DNA of 64,000 bases from a virus. Lineage: Duplodnaviria > Heunggongvirae > Uroviricota > Caudoviricetes. Shown here piece by piece: positions 56,565 to 64,000 of this stretch (within the stretch, counting starts at the first letter, position 1; each line of letters starts with the position of its first letter). The DNA is taken from the IMG/VR virus record IMGVR_UViG_2778261161_000002; one strand, 5' to 3'. A program made the position numbers and the translations under genes. The notes beneath the pieces are model-generated. The model searched no databases and had not been told where the DNA came from. It worked only from the letters and a program-made list of their open reading frames with translations.

Positions 56565-56924
56565 TCAAATACCAACCAAGCTTTCAAGAGGAATGCCAAA
56601 CTGGGAATGTAAACGGCGAATCATAGGTAACGTCAAATTTCGTGTCCCATTTAGCACTTCGTAAACACGATTTGACTTACCAATCGCCGGTTCCAGATCC
56701 TTCACGGTCAGCCCTTGCTGTTCCATACGGAATTTAATGGCCTCAATAGGTGATGGTGGCTCAATTGGGTAATGTTTTTTCTCGTACTCCTCAATGAGAA
56801 GACTCATAACCTCAAAGAAATCACCTTCCGGAGTATTCATTTCCGGTTCGTTATCGAACATCGGTTCGACCGCACGCAGTGCGGCCTCATAATCTTGTTC
56901 TGTACGGATAGGTTTAATGTTCAT
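56565..56924 (-). CDS. HigA-like HTH antitoxin/regulator (E. coli YgjM type)
   Basis: C-terminal GLTVKDLEPAIGKSNRVYEVLNGTRNLTLPMIRRLHSQFGIP resembles HigA HTH. Confidence 0.6.
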   Translation of the reverse strand: MNIKPIRTEQDYEAALRAVEPMFDNEPEMNTPEGDFFEVMSLLIEEYEKKHYPIEPPSPIEAIKFRMEQQGLTVKDLEPAIGKSNRVYEVLNGTRNLTLPMIRRLHSQFGIPLESLVGI

Positions 56925-56936
56925 TAATTACAAAGG

Positions 56937-56962
56937 AAAGCCCACTTGCTAAGTGGGCTTTT
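56937..56962. terminator. Hairpin AAGCCCAC-ttgctaa-GTGGGCTT + T-run
   Basis: Between higA and HigA-like gene. Confidence 0.55.
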
Positions 56963-56980
56963 TGTATGTGTTTTACTATA

Positions 56981-57319
56981 TCAGGCTGCTTTTTTATTCA
57001 GGTTCCGCTGAGAAATAAATTTTTCAGCAGTATTGATACGACTTAACTCTTCCTGAACGCGCATATCATTTTCGACTTCCCACAGATCTACTGCGGTCTG
57101 AAGATTAATCCAAAAATCTACAGAAGTATCGAATGCTTTTGCCAGGCGATATGCCATATCCATCGTTAGCTTACGATTATTATTAACAAGAGCACTTACG
57201 GTGTTACGATGAACATGAAGTATTTCTGCTAACTCGTTGATCTTCAGCTCTAACGGCTCCAGGTATTCGTACAGCAGGATATCACCTACGGTCGTCGGTT
57301 TTCTGGTTGCCTGTTTCAT
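56981..57319 (-). CDS. higA: HigA antitoxin (XRE-type HTH)
   Basis: TVGDILLYEYLEPLELKINELAEILHVHRNTVSALVNNNRKLTMDMAYRLAKAFDTSVDFWINLQ. Confidence 0.8.
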   Translation of the reverse strand: MKQATRKPTTVGDILLYEYLEPLELKINELAEILHVHRNTVSALVNNNRKLTMDMAYRLAKAFDTSVDFWINLQTAVDLWEVENDMRVQEELSRINTAEKFISQRNLNKKAA

Positions 57320-57389
57320 TTTTTGCCCTTACTAGCGTGCGTATTAAGTGGACTCTGGTCAGAACCCGGTCCGTAACCGGGTATCTGTT

Positions 57390-57692
57390 TTAGTATTTGT
57401 GAGGGTCGAGATACAAGTCCTCGGCCTTTCCGTTAACCCACTTAAAAATTAACCTATATTGCTTATTCACCCTTACTGATGAATAGCCATTTAGCTTCCC
57501 TGACAGTTCCTCATACCGATTACCTGGTGGTGATCTTAAATCCTTACAGGTAGTTGCGGCATTGATAATGTCCAACTTCCGTGACAATGTCATATGAATA
57601 TCAGGAGGTATCTTTCTATGTGGTGTTGAAAATTCAAAAAAATCATCAAGCCACGCATCCCTGAAATCCTTTATGTTAATTTTTTTGGTCAT
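57390..57692 (-). CDS. higB: HigB toxin (RelE/ParE superfamily)
   Basis: YRLIFKWVNGKAEDLYLDPHKY C-terminus; upstream of higA. Confidence 0.75.
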   Translation of the reverse strand: MTKKINIKDFRDAWLDDFFEFSTPHRKIPPDIHMTLSRKLDIINAATTCKDLRSPPGNRYEELSGKLNGYSSVRVNKQYRLIFKWVNGKAEDLYLDPHKY

Positions 57693-57842
57693 TAGTCATT
57701 TGATCCTCCGTGATGATTACCGAATGCCATAACTATAGCGCACCGTTGCACTGTGCGCAAGTGCATTTTATGAATTCCCCCTCCTTCATCCAAAATCACA
57801 ATCTCCCGAAAATCTTCCTTTCGATACCTGACAGATCGACCT

Positions 57843-58646
57843 TTGAGGATGCTTATGGGCCGTTTTGACGAATGGTTTGCTGACGATGTAAACCTGGCAA
57901 GTAAGGAGTCAGAACATGACTGCACGCAGAGAGAAACGCCAGCGCCGATTGAAGCGAATGCAGGAGGCGCGCCGGAACATGGCAATACCAGTTCGGATTC
58001 ATTCAGCATTCTGGAAGAGCAACCCGCCGCCAAAGCTGATAGCCATGATAATTTTGCTGATAGCAACGGTGGCCTTACTCCGGACGCTGGCGAATCAAAT
58101 ATAGCCACACTTCCACCTTCCCTGGCTGGCAGAGAACCGACTCCACAGCTAAAAGCACGCTATAACGGGCATAAAGCCTTTAACGACCAAATCCGCGCAG
58201 ACTGGATGCTGATTATTGAATCCAGCCCAGACGCGTTTCAGGCTCTCTTATATCGACCAGATGTTGGCACATATGGGGTAGTCAGCGACGAAACAGGAGA
58301 AGAGTCATTCACTGAACTGGATAACAACCAGCGCGAACTGACTTACCAGGAACCTGAAATCGTTTATGTGCTGGATAACCCGGACGGGCGTGACTCTCTC
58401 CATGCGATTGACGCAGACGGTGAGCAGGATGGCTTAACCGATGATGTTCTGATTCTGCGTATTGCAGCAAATAACGTCCCCGTCGGATCAATTCTTGAAT
58501 GGAATGAAGAGATGGTAAACGGCGTAGCCCGCCGCTGGTGGTACGTGCACCGTATTTTTAGCTACGGCACACAGCATGTTGGTTCGCTTTACTACTGCAT
58601 ACCGGCCAGGAATTTTGATACGACTCAAAACGGAGTGATCGAATGA
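57843..58646 (+). CDS. Hypothetical acidic protein (start uncertain)
   Basis: ORF track; N-terminal low-complexity region. Confidence 0.35.
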   Translation: MRMLMGRFDEWFADDVNLASKESEHDCTQRETPAPIEANAGGAPEHGNTSSDSFSILEEQPAAKADSHDNFADSNGGLTPDAGESNIATLPPSLAGREPTPQLKARYNGHKAFNDQIRADWMLIIESSPDAFQALLYRPDVGTYGVVSDETGEESFTELDNNQRELTYQEPEIVYVLDNPDGRDSLHAIDADGEQDGLTDDVLILRIAANNVPVGSILEWNEEMVNGVARRWWYVHRIFSYGTQHVGSLYYCIPARNFDTTQNGVIE

Positions 58647-59410
58647 CTTCAAATAAAACCCTCCTGGCGCGAACAGGTGAATGGCAAACCTCACGCACAG
58701 GAAAATTCCAGACCACGGGCTTTGAAAGCGTGGATAACGCGTTTGCTACGCTAATCAGCAATATCTTTTCTGATATCTTACTGGTGGCCCCCGCGCCGGA
58801 AGAAAAACGCTTTGCGTCATTCCTGAATCGTCCACCAGCAGAGCGTGTCTATGTGGCCCGTTTCGACAATGCGATCGAGTTTCTTAAAGCAGTTCGTCGC
58901 GCAAATGCCGGGCAAGGGAGAAAACCTGAAAACCAGAACATTAACCGGGATGCTCTCCCCCTGGTCAATATCTCACGCACTATGGATATCAATTATATCA
59001 ACGATGATCAGCAGATTGACCGCAAAAAAGTAGCCAGTTTTTGCGAACCGGATACCGGAATGCCTTTAGCAGAACTGGAATACACCCAGGCCATTCTGAC
59101 GTATGACGTTACGTTAATGGCAACTGATAAAGCGACCATGAGTCTGATGTGTAATTCGCTGGGCGCACGGCTTCGCCTGATGACAGGTACACAATTTGAA
59201 GCAACCACTCACCTTGTTCGTGTCCCGGTCCCGCTGATTTGCTCGATACAGGATGCCAAAGAAGTCGGATTTACGGATGTTTCGGCACCAATTGGAGAAG
59301 AGCGTATTTATGCCACACAAGCGCCGATAAGTGTGATTGCAGACGTGATCACAGCATGGGAGTTGGACGCAAAACGTATTATTACCGAAACCTCGATATC
59401 TATGGGGTGA
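58643..59410 (+). CDS. Hypothetical protein (possible virion structural), 255 aa
   Basis: ORF track; ATGA coupling. Confidence 0.45.
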   Translation: MTSNKTLLARTGEWQTSRTGKFQTTGFESVDNAFATLISNIFSDILLVAPAPEEKRFASFLNRPPAERVYVARFDNAIEFLKAVRRANAGQGRKPENQNINRDALPLVNISRTMDINYINDDQQIDRKKVASFCEPDTGMPLAELEYTQAILTYDVTLMATDKATMSLMCNSLGARLRLMTGTQFEATTHLVRVPVPLICSIQDAKEVGFTDVSAPIGEERIYATQAPISVIADVITAWELDAKRIITETSISMG

Positions 59411-60394: not shown

Positions 60395-61044
60395 AGCGTA
60401 GAGCGCAAATTGTTGGAACTGTGCACCCGGCAGGGCTTATGCGTGCTCAAGTCCGTGTTTTACCTGACTGGAATGGCGTTCCTGATGACGATCTACCCTG
60501 GGCGGAATACCAGTTACCCATCGGGAACGCTTTTGTACCTACAGTCAAAGGTGACCTGGTCTGGGTAGAGTTTCCTTATTTAGATGTTAACGGTCGAATA
60601 GACACCAGACGCCCAATGATAGTTGGTGCCGCTCAGGATGCACCGGGAGGAATTCCAAACGTTGCACCAGAAGCATCTGGCAAAGGCAACGGCTGGACGC
60701 CGCCGGAAGTAGATGGAGCACCTCCCCGCCCCCAAATCTCAGCAACGAAAGACTTCGTTATTCACCGCAACAATATTCTTGAAGTACGAACTGCTGGTGG
60801 CGGCTATGAAATTGCCAATACGGCAGCTGGCTCAAGGATTGGCATGAATGAGTCCGGGCAGATATATATCATTGGTCCGGCTGATGTAATCGTGAATGCA
60901 GGAGGGAGTGTTAACGTCAAATCAGCCAACAACATCAATGTTAATGGGGAAAATATAGCTGTCACCGCTAACGGGGACATAGCTTTCAAGGCAGGAGGAA
61001 CCTTTCAGGCCACTGCTGGCAACTTCGATTTCAAGAAAGGATAG
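60391..61044 (+). CDS. Baseplate spike/gpV-like protein
   Basis: N-terminal OB-like GDLVWVEFPYLDVNGRIDTRRPMIVG and C-terminal beta-helix-like repeats VNAGGSVNVKSANNINVNGENIAVTANG. Confidence 0.55.
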   Translation: MKRRAQIVGTVHPAGLMRAQVRVLPDWNGVPDDDLPWAEYQLPIGNAFVPTVKGDLVWVEFPYLDVNGRIDTRRPMIVGAAQDAPGGIPNVAPEASGKGNGWTPPEVDGAPPRPQISATKDFVIHRNNILEVRTAGGGYEIANTAAGSRIGMNESGQIYIIGPADVIVNAGGSVNVKSANNINVNGENIAVTANGDIAFKAGGTFQATAGNFDFKKG

Positions 61045-61081
61045 AAAATGCACCCATTTATGTTAGATAATTAACATGCAT

Positions 61082-61090
61082 TTTCTAACA
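61082..61090 (+). promoter_or_regulatory. Operator-like motif (copy 13) with inverted partner TGTTAGATA at 61061..61069
   Basis: tttaTGTTAGATAattaacatgcaTTTTCTAACAtaaat immediately upstream of rdgC. Confidence 0.5.
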
Positions 61091-61103
61091 TAAATGGTGA
61101 GAC

Positions 61104-62009
61104 ATGAGATCAGTCGCTTTCAAAAATATCTTCATCTATCGTCTTTCACGCGAAGTTAACTGGGATACCGCAGAAGTAAATGCTGCCCTTAGCAAGTTTG
61201 TGTTTACCCCATGCGGTTCTCAGGATATTGCTAAAGCTGGTTGGACCCCCGTCCTTGGCGACAACCTCACCCATGAATACAAGGGTTTTCTTCTGATACA
61301 GCATAAACGAGAGGAAAAAATCCTACCTTCTCAAGTGCTCAAAGAAGAGCTACAGAAAAAAATCCTGAAACTTGAAGAAGAACAAGACAGAAAGCTGAAG
61401 AAGACCGAAAAAGATTCGCTGAAGGATGAAGTGCTTCACTCTCTTCTTCCTCGTGCTTTCACGAGAAAATCAGTCGCTAAAATCCTGATAGACCGAAGCA
61501 ATCATCTGGTTTTTGTCGAGGCGAGCAGTGCTAAAAAAGCAGAGGATCAGCTGGCTTTGTTACGGAAATCTCTTGGCAGCTTGCCCGTTGTCCCCTTCTC
61601 TCCGAAAGACCCATTAGAACTGACCATCACTGGCTGGATTAAAAATGGCTTCCCGAACGGTTTCCGTGCCGGTGAGGAAGCGACCTTAAAAGCATTGCTT
61701 GATGATGGCGGCGCGGTCCGCTGCAAAAAAGTGGACCTGCTATCCGACGAGATCATGAGTCATATAGAAGCTGGTAAGGTTGCAACCACAGTTGCGGTTA
61801 ACTGGCAAGACCGTGCATTTTTCAGACTGAATGACGATATGAGTATCAAGGCTTTGTCGTTCAGCGACGAATTGTACGACCAGAACGACGATATTGATCG
61901 AGGGGATGTTGCTCAACGATTTGACGCTGACTTTATCCTGTTTACTGCTGAATTATCAGCGATGTTCACTTCGCTGGTGGAGGCCGTTGGTGGTGAAGCA
62001 GAACGTTAA
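61104..62009 (+). CDS. rdgC: Recombination-associated protein RdgC
   Basis: [69 protein letters not shown] blocks match E. coli RdgC. Confidence 0.9.
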
Positions 62010-62022
62010 CAATAGACCTCTT

Positions 62023-62673
62023 ATGGTGAGTCTTTGTGATTTCACGGGGAAAATGGTCGCCCCCTGGCTGGAGCATGGTATAGATGCTGTTATCGTCGAT
62101 CCACAACACGCAAAGACCACAGATGAGCTGATGCAATCAGGCGCAGTTCTGACACGTATCAGTGCGATTATCGATAGTGATGAAGTTTATGCTTTTCTCC
62201 GAAATAATTTACAACGTATTGTGTTTTTAGCTGGTTTTCCGCCGTGCACGGACCTTGCTGTTTCCGGTGCGCGCTGGTTTGCACATAAGGCTGACAAAGA
62301 TCCGGTTTTCCAGTTCAAAGCGATGCAAGTCGTCTGGCAGTGTTACGACATTGCAAAGATGATTGGTTTCCCGTACATGATTGAAAACCCGGTCAGCCAA
62401 ATATCGACATTCTGGCGTAAACCTGATCACATCTTCCATCCTTACCACTTCACTGCATATTGCAAGGAAGACAATTACACCAAAAAAACATGCCTCTGGA
62501 GCGGGCAGGGCTTTGTCATGCCTGATGCCCTAATGGACGAATCATTAGGCAAGCCAGATAACAGAATCCATACCGCGCCACCTGGGCCTGAAAGGGCTAA
62601 TTTTCGAAGTGCTACTCCGAATGGATTCGCAAAAGCAGTTTTCGAAGCAAATAAGGGGGTGCTCTATGAGTAA
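62023..62673 (+). CDS. Short C5-cytosine-methyltransferase-like protein (atypical, about 216 aa)
   Basis: GFPPCTDLAVSG (PC motif IV-like) and MIENPV (ENV-like) in correct order and spacing; no TRD; stop overlaps dam start. Confidence 0.4.
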   Translation: MVSLCDFTGKMVAPWLEHGIDAVIVDPQHAKTTDELMQSGAVLTRISAIIDSDEVYAFLRNNLQRIVFLAGFPPCTDLAVSGARWFAHKADKDPVFQFKAMQVVWQCYDIAKMIGFPYMIENPVSQISTFWRKPDHIFHPYHFTAYCKEDNYTKKTCLWSGQGFVMPDALMDESLGKPDNRIHTAPPGPERANFRSATPNGFAKAVFEANKGVLYE

Positions 62674-63571
62674 ATCTCTAGTAAGCACAGCCATAGAAAG
62701 ACATGATTCGATGGCGGAAATTAGCTATATGCGCACCATTCGGACTCCGGATGAATACGAGCGTCCGATCTTCAAATGGGTAGGCGGTAAATTTTCAGAG
62801 TTGCCTATAGTGCTTGAGCATCTACCACACGGTAAGCGGTTAATAGAACCATTCGTTGGTGGCGGTTCCGTATTTACGAATGCAGGATTTCGCCACAACC
62901 TGCTTAATGATATTAACGGTGACTTGATTAACTTCTATCAGACATTGCAGCGAGAAAGACATTCTCTAGTCACGCTGTCATATAGTTTTTTCCAAAATTA
63001 CAACAACGCTGACGCTTACCTCGAAGTGCGTGAGGCATTTAACAGAGGAAAGTATGACCAACTACATCATGCTGCTGCCTTTTTGTACCTTAATCGGCAC
63101 TGTTTTAATGGCGTAACACGGTACAACCAAAATGGCGAGTTCAACGTAGGGTATGGTAAATACAAAGCGCCCTACTTCCCACATGCAGAGATGGAGGCAT
63201 TTTTGGCTGATGACGTACTCAAAAACACTTCCTTTGTATCAGGTGACTTTGCTGGCGTCATCGAGGCGGCTGGTGAAGGCGATGTGATTTTTTGCGATCC
63301 GCCGTATGAACCGCTGCCGGATACAGAAGGGTTTACCAGTTATTCAGGAAATAGCTTCCGTTTCGACGAACAGAAACGGCTGGTATCTCTATTGGTGGAA
63401 GCCCACCAGCGCGGCGCTAAGGTAGTGATTACAAATAGTGGTGCGCCAAACATCCGTGAACTATATGAAGGAAACGGGTTTAAAGTACATCATATGGCAG
63501 CCAGACGGTCGGTTTCCTGCAAGGCGTCAACACGTGTAGTTGCTAACGATATAATTGCAATAATGAAGTAA
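62666..63571 (+). CDS. dam: Dam-family N6-adenine DNA methyltransferase (GATC)
   Basis: FKWVGGK, EPFVGGGSVF, FLYLNRHCFNGVTRYN, GEFNV, CDPPY align with E. coli Dam. Confidence 0.85.
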   Translation: MSKSLVSTAIERHDSMAEISYMRTIRTPDEYERPIFKWVGGKFSELPIVLEHLPHGKRLIEPFVGGGSVFTNAGFRHNLLNDINGDLINFYQTLQRERHSLVTLSYSFFQNYNNADAYLEVREAFNRGKYDQLHHAAAFLYLNRHCFNGVTRYNQNGEFNVGYGKYKAPYFPHAEMEAFLADDVLKNTSFVSGDFAGVIEAAGEGDVIFCDPPYEPLPDTEGFTSYSGNSFRFDEQKRLVSLLVEAHQRGAKVVITNSGAPNIRELYEGNGFKVHHMAARRSVSCKASTRVVANDIIAIMK

Positions 63572-63573
63572 AA

Positions 63574-63600
63574 AACGCCGCAGTAGCGGCGTTTACTTTT
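63574..63600. terminator. Bidirectional terminator AACGCCGC-agta-GCGGCGTT; strong T-run on minus strand (glnS terminator)
   Basis: Read directly. Confidence 0.7.
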
Positions 63601-63619: not shown

Positions 63620-64000
63620 TTAACCTAACTTCGCCCAGGTATCACGCAGCCCAACGGTGCGGTTAAATACCGGTTTTTCCGCCGTAGAATGGCGGCTGTC
63701 GAGGCAGAAATAACCTTCACGCTCAAACTGGAATGCTTTACCCGCTACCGCTTCTTTCAGCGACGGTTCAGCAAAGCCTTGTTTGATCACCAGCGATTCC
63801 GGGTTAATCACCGACAGGAAATCATCCGCAGCACCTGGGTTCGGCACGTTGAACAGACGATCGTACAGGCGGATTTCAACCGGCAGCGCATGTTCCGCGC
63901 TCACCCAGTGAATAACGCCTTTCACTTTACGACCATCTGCCGGATCTTTGCTTAAGGTGTCGGCGTCATAAGTACAGAAGATGGTGGTGATATTGCCTTC
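63620..64000 (-). CDS. glnS: Glutaminyl-tRNA synthetase, 3' end (host gene, 5' part beyond window)
   Basis: [100 protein letters not shown] matches E. coli GlnRS C-terminus. Confidence 0.9.

Follow-up and report, generated by a model that had tools for sequence, protein, structure and literature searches.

In bacteriophage P1 the gene hrdC is followed by dmt, and the Dmt protein (754 amino acids, aa) carries a PF00145 domain at its N-terminus and, over residues 493-725, the D12 domain of a Dam. The phrog_757 family is already known as a group of compact C5-cytosine methyltransferases (C5-MTases) and is thinly characterised. In phage K42, the orthologue of bas06_0055 of phage KarlJaspers (MZ501090) is the trigger of the retron Ec86, and escape mutants disrupt this gene (bioRxiv 10.1101/2023.08.16.553469). 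Expression of the K42 protein, called Dcm, raises the level of 5-methylcytosine (5mC) in the Ec86 multicopy single-stranded DNA (msDNA) as measured by liquid chromatography coupled to mass spectrometry (LC-MS), and its C82A/E128A/K175A/K176A quadruple mutant is inactive (bioRxiv 10.1101/2023.08.16.553469). A second relative, gp52 of the Pantoea phage AAS23, has no conserved domain by BLAST and gives an HHpred match of 99.7% to the C5-MTase 3ME5 (PMC8004638). Here we compare these systems with a gene found in a stretch of 64,000 nucleotides (IMG/VR record IMGVR_UViG_2778261161_000002; hereafter the window), which by its sequence is part of a D6-like, P1-related phage-plasmid.

The gene occupies positions 61993-62673 of the plus strand, between rdgC and dam, and probably (about 0.8 by our estimate) it encodes an active orphan DNA C5-cytosine methyltransferase resembling Dcm, which is referred to below as the compact MTase. 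An earlier note on this DNA had described the protein as C5-MTase-like, and this identity is supported by the matches of a fold search, by an invariant catalytic Cys and Glu and by a homologue of the same PHROG that makes 5mC in vivo. We infer that the protein is active because its gene lies in the slot of the canonical C5 domain of P1 Dmt, because its catalytic residues are conserved and because homologues of it have been tested. Since the orthologous gene is already annotated in phage D6 and relatives have been studied experimentally, the finding is real but ordinary.

The compact MTase gene and its family

The open reading frame (ORF) from 62023 to 62673, described earlier as encoding a 216-aa protein, is real and its frame stays open up to the TAA at 62671-62673. 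As judged from the surrounding sequence, the GTG at 61993, which gives a protein of 226 aa, is a more likely start than the ATG at 62023. This start is preferred because a GGAGG Shine-Dalgarno sequence (61979-61983, plus strand, 9 nt upstream of the GTG) and the GTG itself are kept in D6, because D6 reads GTT (Val) where the window has ATG 62023, and because homologues translate residues upstream of that ATG, one starting with MKLSVNNRPL (P0004) and another with MNERPL (P0009; MNERPLVVSLCD). The GGAGG is invariant in both D6 and pWP8. The 226-aa form is used for D6 orf64 in GenBank and by most gene calls, and the 216-aa form by the Prokaryotic Genome Annotation Pipeline (PGAP).

Starting from GTG 61993, the gene overlaps the stop codon of rdgC (62007-62009) by 17 nt. 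The 8-nt overlap at its other end, noticed earlier, is also confirmed: the ATG of dam is at 62666 and the two genes share the letters ATGAGTAA. The Shine-Dalgarno sequence of dam, AAGGGGG (62653-62659, plus strand), lies inside the compact MTase gene, 6 nt ahead of the dam ATG. In the 226-aa form, therefore, rdgC, the compact MTase gene and dam are all chained by overlaps, of 17 nt and 8 nt respectively.

A chance ORF is ruled out by the match of the protein to the phrog_757 profile ('DNA methyltransferase'; E 1.7e-76, residues 2-214 on profile positions 18-222 of 247), by 6,884 homologues at E <= 0.001 in a large protein collection and by the presence of the family in 1,588 phage records as found by tblastn. 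These records include T1-like Drexlerviridae, Dhillonvirus, Klebsiella siphoviruses, large myoviruses and the T4-like Krischvirus, and in them the gene is variously labelled 'DNA methyltransferase', 'C-5 cytosine methylase', 'Dcm' or 'hypothetical protein'. D6 orf64, the orthologue, carries the annotation 'putative DNA-cytosine methylase', and RefSeq labels the gene studied here 'hypothetical protein'. Many homologues are around 60% identical to the window protein and yet come from Pseudomonas, Agrobacterium, Cronobacter, Cedecea and Kushneria, all of them being ~215-255 aa in length and without a Pfam domain. An exhaustive profile search gathers 2,509 clusters at 50% identity with a median length of 226 aa (5th-95th percentile, 166-289). 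The window protein, a single domain of 226 aa, lies within the ~200-280 aa range of the PHROG 757 enzymes.

Some members of the family carry additional domains. In one of them (P0219), a Hint and LAGLIDADG intein is inserted directly before the catalytic Cys (GFPP/C...HN/CTNLSVSG), so that the Cys becomes the +1 extein residue; such a position would be expected if this active site is essential. Another (P0166, 348 aa) has an HNH_2 endonuclease domain at its C-terminus, and a third (P0121, 563 aa; L013 218-1909, one 2-kb contig) is fused to a C-terminal D12 Dam domain.

Fold, catalytic residues and target recognition

The AlphaFold2 model of the compact MTase, generated from 33 homologues, is confident, with a pLDDT of 87.5 and a predicted template modelling score (pTM) of 0.86. 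The loop that follows the PC motif is less well defined, which would be expected of a mobile catalytic loop. The predicted three-dimensional fold is that of a C5-MTase. When the model was searched with Foldseek, almost all of the top ~45 matches were DNMT3 structures (E ~1e-4, probability 1.00, template modelling (TM) score ~0.5), and DNMT3B, DNMT3A, a prophage C5-MTase, CmoX, DNMT1, M.HhaI, M.MpeI and M.HaeIII stand at or near the top of the fold search.

Conservation was assessed in two alignments, one of close homologues (A1) and one of 47 diverse relatives which are 33-50% identical (A3). The PC and ENV-like motifs reported earlier are present as FPPC (residues 72-75) and ENPV (residues 121-124, both in the 216-aa numbering). 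The equivalent of motif IV, FPPCT, is encoded at 62236-62250 with the codon of the catalytic Cys at 62245-62247 (C75, or C85 in the 226-aa numbering), and this Cys is invariant in A1 and A3. ENPV, the equivalent of motif VI, is encoded at 62383-62394 (E121/E131), its E, N and P being invariant or nearly so. The strand YTKKTCLW (62476-62499), likely the equivalent of motif VIII, has K, T and W invariant in the 47 relatives, and the equivalent of motif X, RSATP (62605-62619), has its R, S, T and P in at least 90% of A3 and is followed by a helix with the sequence GFAKAVF; all of these motifs are on the plus strand. The 47 relatives keep invariant or nearly invariant the Cys of FPPC, E-N-P, WRKPD, Y-K-T-W of YTKKTCLW and R-S-x-T-P-x-G-F.

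Comparison with canonical enzymes by hhalign, in which the targets were single canonical sequences (a search for Dmt homologues gave only near-identical ones), places FPPCTDLAVSG in register with GFPCQAFSISG of HhaI and IENPV with FMENV, the order and spacing of motifs IV and VI being preserved. FPPC and ENP are also in register with TPCQ and ENV of Dmt. The motif X pattern xRSxTP with its terminal helix resembles GRSWSVPVIRHLF (GRSWSVP) of DNMT3A. Both the HhaI sequence and the C-terminal sequence of DNMT3A used in these comparisons were verified.

The relatives with experimental records share the same catalytic layout. KarlJaspers bas06_0055 (711 bp), which carries the annotation 'Dcm-like C5 cytosine methyltransferase', is 37% identical to the compact MTase over its full length (E 6e-43) and matches the same phrog_757 profile (E 6.2e-86), and AAS23 gp52 is 33% identical (E 4e-37). 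In a pairwise alignment, the residues C82, E128, K175 and K176 of K42 Dcm correspond to C85, E131, K164 and K165 of the window protein (226-aa numbering). C85, E131 and K164 are invariant in A3, and K165 is the majority residue in A3 and invariant in A1. The K42/KarlJaspers and AAS23 enzymes and the window protein thus have in common their PHROG, a similar length (235-236 aa against 226 aa here), the Cys of FPPC, the Glu of ENP, the Lys-Lys pair and RSxTP, and each is an orphan enzyme on a phage genome which also encodes a Dam.

The tested enzymes belong to another subfamily, and their variable loops are unlike those of the window protein, which are the shortest. Insertions in the family concentrate after residues 157 and 187, on either side of YTKKTCLW, and the window protein is the shortest at both places. 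In the relatives, short variable insertions between YTKKTCLW and RSATP reach up to 42 alignment columns. The statement of the earlier note that the protein has no target-recognition domain is nearly right, except that ~30 residues (~173-204, 226-aa numbering) remain between YTKKTCLW and RSATP; in M.HhaI the corresponding interval between motifs VIII and X is ~140 residues. We infer that the loops after residues 157 and 187 are the remnant of a target-recognition domain. Since these loops differ from those of the T1-like phages, the CCWGG specificity is not transferable to the window protein, and by analogy a CCWGG target is suggested for the distant relatives only. The recognition loops of the D6-type subfamily are shorter than any others in the family, and yet its members from E. 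coli, Pseudomonas and Agrobacterium still share ~60% identity. It is conceivable, though we consider it rather doubtful, that this subfamily is not a CCWGG enzyme at all and reads DNA through a DNMT3-like dimer interface, through its co-translated Dam partner or by way of a very short or relaxed motif. If so, no smaller C5 DNA methyltransferase that reads a sequence would be known, and it might serve as a compact tool enzyme.

Several observations weigh against an active methyltransferase of this kind. A Pfam scan of the ORF gives no methyltransferase match and no PF00145 at E <= 1, NCBIfam and PADLOC scans give no match whatever, and the sequences of the PDB yield nothing relevant, whether the query is the protein itself or either of two family profiles. 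The alignments of the family profile by hhalign to single canonical sequences are non-significant, with probabilities of 3% (HhaI) and 0.1% (N-terminus of Dmt). Motif I, LCDFTGKM, is degenerate and keeps one Gly of FxGxG, and motif X lacks the canonical Asn, reading RSATP and not GN(S/A)V. The tested relatives are just 33-37% identical and differ most in the presumptive DNA-reading loops. Moreover, a CCWGG target was assumed for K42 Dcm by analogy with the host Dcm and from the name, and only msDNA stem mutants support it (bioRxiv 10.1101/2023.08.16.553469). The DNA of phage AAS23 was reported to be Dam- and Dcm-methylated by restriction digestion with a panel including EcoRII (PMC8004638), host Dcm not being excluded as the source of the Dcm-type result. 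Finally, frameshifted alleles occur in nature, so that the gene is occasionally inactivated and is dispensable: a run of seven A (62482-62488) encodes the Lys-Lys of YTKKTCLW, and an allele with six A, giving a truncated protein of 179 aa (P0006), is present in 3 independent sequencing samples.

PF00145 is the sole Pfam family that recurs among the relatives, below threshold in 7 of the 47 and with a best E of 0.0039. The T1-like relatives have a motif I, LFDGSGK, which is nearer to the canonical one. A DNA_methylase profile search, which the earlier note had recommended as a check, gives no PF00145 match here, and this outcome would wrongly have counted against the gene. A family with members in thousands of prophages and in ~1,600 phages of known sequence escapes Pfam, NCBIfam and PADLOC, so that inventories of phage and plasmid cytosine methylases undercount. 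As to the run of A, none of the 37 complete E. coli genomes with this gene has the six-A allele, and phase variation at this site is therefore unsupported.

Alternative readings and proposed mechanism

Among the alternatives, the one that survives best, although we hold it to be improbable, is that the compact MTase is an obligate partner of Dam, which would supply DNA binding, so that the two proteins together form a two-polypeptide Dmt modifying cytosines near or within GATC. The very short recognition region would suit such a role, and the 8-nt overlap with the internal Shine-Dalgarno sequence would give coupled translation; overlapping genes, however, are commonplace in phage operons. The pair is adjacent in other P1/D6-like contigs as well, but most members of the family are solitary and lie in the early or nin regions of prophages (Pseudomonas, Agrobacterium, Cronobacter, Kushneria) with no Dam nearby, and in KarlJaspers and AAS23 the Dam gene is ~7 kb away on the opposite strand. 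In P1 the orthologous Dam is joined to a C5 domain, and P0121 is a natural fusion of the compact type to a D12 Dam, although this fusion is known from that single contig, which is short; when examined for a P1/D6 context it shows an upstream gene other than RdgC, and the fusion is therefore weak evidence. K42 Dcm is active in vivo when expressed alone.

A somewhat smaller chance is given to the proposal that the enzyme transfers a group other than methyl, for example carboxymethyl from the carboxy-S-adenosylmethionine (Cx-SAM) of the host, or that its substrate is RNA, or else DNA in single-stranded or hairpin form, and not duplex DNA. In CmoX, an Arg in place of Asn304 of HhaI selects Cx-SAM, which E. 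coli makes (PMC12783734), and in the compact family an Arg is invariant in the loop of motif X, at the place of the Gly-Asn of canonical enzymes. This Arg is not diagnostic, because DNMT3A and DNMT3B, which are true methyltransferases and the best structural matches, also carry G-R-S by a simple alignment of the motif; furthermore, the K42 relative yielded 5mC by LC-MS, and neither cmoA nor a ligase gene lies near the compact MTase. With regard to the substrate, the only one demonstrated for a relative is the stem-loop of retron msDNA, but the DNA of AAS23 behaved as a Dcm-methylated duplex.

It is even less probable that the protein is a catalytically dead methyltransferase-like factor which has been kept for DNA binding or regulation. 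Its degenerate motif I, its minimal recognition region and the lack of a match to curated methyltransferase models would agree with such a role, but the Cys, the Glu, the Lys-Lys pair and the residues of the cofactor loop are strictly conserved over ~2,500 clusters (50% identity), an active homologue depends on those same residues, and an intein sits at the catalytic Cys of P0219. The least probable reading, that the gene is the detached or rearranged cytosine-MTase half of a Dmt-type bifunctional protein, was favoured by its position between an hrdC/rdgC homologue and a Dam module and by the orthology of Dam to the C-terminal half of Dmt including ~30 linker residues, but it is refuted at the sequence level, since residues 1-460 of Dmt are dissimilar (BLASTP E 0.91, hhalign probability 0.1%) and belong to PF00145 and phrog_116/363 whereas the compact MTase belongs to phrog_757 without a Pfam match, and since the compact family stands alone in thousands of unrelated phages.

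We therefore return to an active orphan C5-cytosine methyltransferase, for which the following mechanism seems plausible. The protein would consist of the catalytic Rossmann domain of a C5-MTase, dependent on S-adenosylmethionine (SAM), with a target-recognition region reduced to ~30 residues and with no restriction partner. From the chemistry of the family, the Cys of FPPC is expected to attack C6 of a flipped-out cytosine and the Glu of ENPV to protonate its N3, while the KK strand and the RS(A)TP loop would hold the base and the cofactor; the methyl group would then move from SAM to C5, and beta-elimination would free the enzyme. The genes rdgC, compact MTase and dam are presumably carried on one transcript, their translation being coupled by the overlapping stop and start codons and the internal Shine-Dalgarno sites. 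In this way the phage-plasmid would mark its own DNA and that of its host on adenine (in GATC) and on cytosine. The purpose is most likely protection from restriction on entry into new hosts, and Dam may additionally serve a packaging control of the P1 type. One side effect would be that defences which sense methylation, retron Ec86 for one, can be alerted.

The rdgC-dam cassette and its comparison with known systems

The region of ~2.7-3 kb around the ORF is 90.4% identical to Escherichia phage D6, and the same 3-kb stretch is 99.6-99.7% identical to ~90-kb plasmids from many E. coli strains. At least 80% of this stretch is found in 85 of 5,426 complete E. coli genomes (~1.6%). D6-like phage-plasmids would methylate their hosts on cytosine as a second layer, and they may be sensed by retron Ec86, since a relative of the enzyme triggers it. 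On the plus strand, a baseplate gene similar to P1 gene 5 is followed by rdgC, the compact MTase ORF and dam, after which come a terminator hairpin and the convergent glnS.

The first gene of the cassette, rdgC (61104-62009, plus strand), encodes a 301-aa homologue of P1 HrdC that matches PF04381 (E 4.6e-101) and is annotated as RdgC in D6 and in the E. coli plasmids. The order rdgC, compact MTase and dam is found again in two further P1/D6-like contigs of ~85-88 kb. An RdgC gene also adjoins or lies near the compact MTase in Kushneria and Agrobacterium prophages which have no Dam (L017 2569-4726; L010 1603-6708), and the association with RdgC may extend beyond P1/D6-like elements.

The 59 bp that separate the baseplate gene from rdgC contain a perfect inverted repeat of 13 bp, CCATTTATGTTAG ... 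CTAACATAAATGG, with a spacer of 18 nt (61054-61097, plus strand). Only two perfect copies occur within the window. As RNA the repeat folds with -20.3 kcal/mol (z -4.5), and D6 preserves its pairing through one compensatory change (A>G / T>C). The repeat overlaps a weak promoter-like site, TAGAAA-18-GATAAT (61042-61071), and its 3' arm adjoins the ribosome-binding site of rdgC. It is possibly an operator, or else a hairpin acting on the mRNA or its translation for the operon, and it may or may not be part of the methylase system. The window contains no match to the consensus of the P1 C1 operator, and thus gives no sign that a P1-style repressor controls the operon.

The last gene of the cassette, dam (62666-63571, plus strand), encodes a D12-class N6-adenine DNA methyltransferase of 301 aa, which matches PF02086 (E 2.5e-56, profile positions 1-252 of 253) and TIGR00571 (E 1e-73) and is annotated as such in D6. 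Residues 6-300 of this Dam are 66% identical to residues ~460-754 of P1 Dmt, including ~30 residues ahead of the D12 domain. RefSeq/PGAP marks dam (L002 7754-8572) as a pseudogene, 'incomplete, missing N-terminus', with a start that is 88 nt late; the ORF is intact, and the label seems to be an artefact that arose when the protein was compared with Dmt fusions, which are longer.

Downstream of dam, a G+C-rich hairpin (63573-63594) with a 9-bp stem, a 4-nt loop and T runs on both sides is a bidirectional terminator shared by dam and the convergent glnS. The latter, a full-length gene for glutaminyl-tRNA synthetase carried on the phage-plasmid, lies at 63620-64000 on the minus strand and runs past the end of the window. 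Its 3' end is so similar to the host glnS that this part of the query finds a match in nearly all of the 5,426 E. coli genomes. Upstream, among the tail genes, a RelE/HigA-type toxin-antitoxin cluster is present at ~56,700-58,700 of the window (L001/L002 1566-2693), and of its two HigA-like genes, one bears the label of a truncated pseudogene in plasmid pWP8-S17-ESBL-05_2.

In comparison to the canonical C5-MTases of PF00145 (M.HhaI, E. coli Dcm, 3g7u), which are ~100 residues longer and have a separate small or target-recognition domain, the compact MTase escapes the Pfam model and reads LCDxTG, PCT and RSxTP where they read FxGxG, PCQ and GN(S/A)V. The catalytic domains of DNMT3A and DNMT3B, with a TM score of ~0.5, are only ~10-13% identical to it in sequence. 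DNMT3 enzymes are dimers or tetramers that read CpG across the interface, and they have regulatory domains. CmoX (PDB 8yf3), a phage DNA cytosine C5-carboxymethyltransferase, has a PF00145-type chain of 333 residues and is linked to a phage cmoA and a ligase (PMC12783734). In the T1-like virulent phages the compact enzyme is encoded by a solitary early gene with Dam far off, whereas here, on a temperate phage-plasmid, its translation is tied to that of rdgC and dam.

The closest parallel in gene arrangement is P1 Dmt, with which the locus shares the cassette slot after an RdgC homologue, the orthologous Dam moiety and the joint expression of a cytosine and an adenine module. The earlier note had pointed correctly to the fusion of the two domains in P1 but left their order ambiguous; the C5 domain of Dmt is N-terminal and Dam is C-terminal. 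Dmt is one polypeptide with a canonical PF00145 cytosine module of ~460 aa (PHROGs 116/363), whereas here two ORFs in different frames overlap by 8 nt and the cytosine module belongs to PHROG 757. The suggestion of a split or rearranged Dmt does not stand, as only the Dam half is orthologous, and the sequences fit better with a conserved rdgC-X-dam cassette whose cytosine module has been swapped for a non-orthologous one. P1 and D6 offer a clear case of one functional slot that is filled by two cytosine-methylase modules unrelated in sequence.

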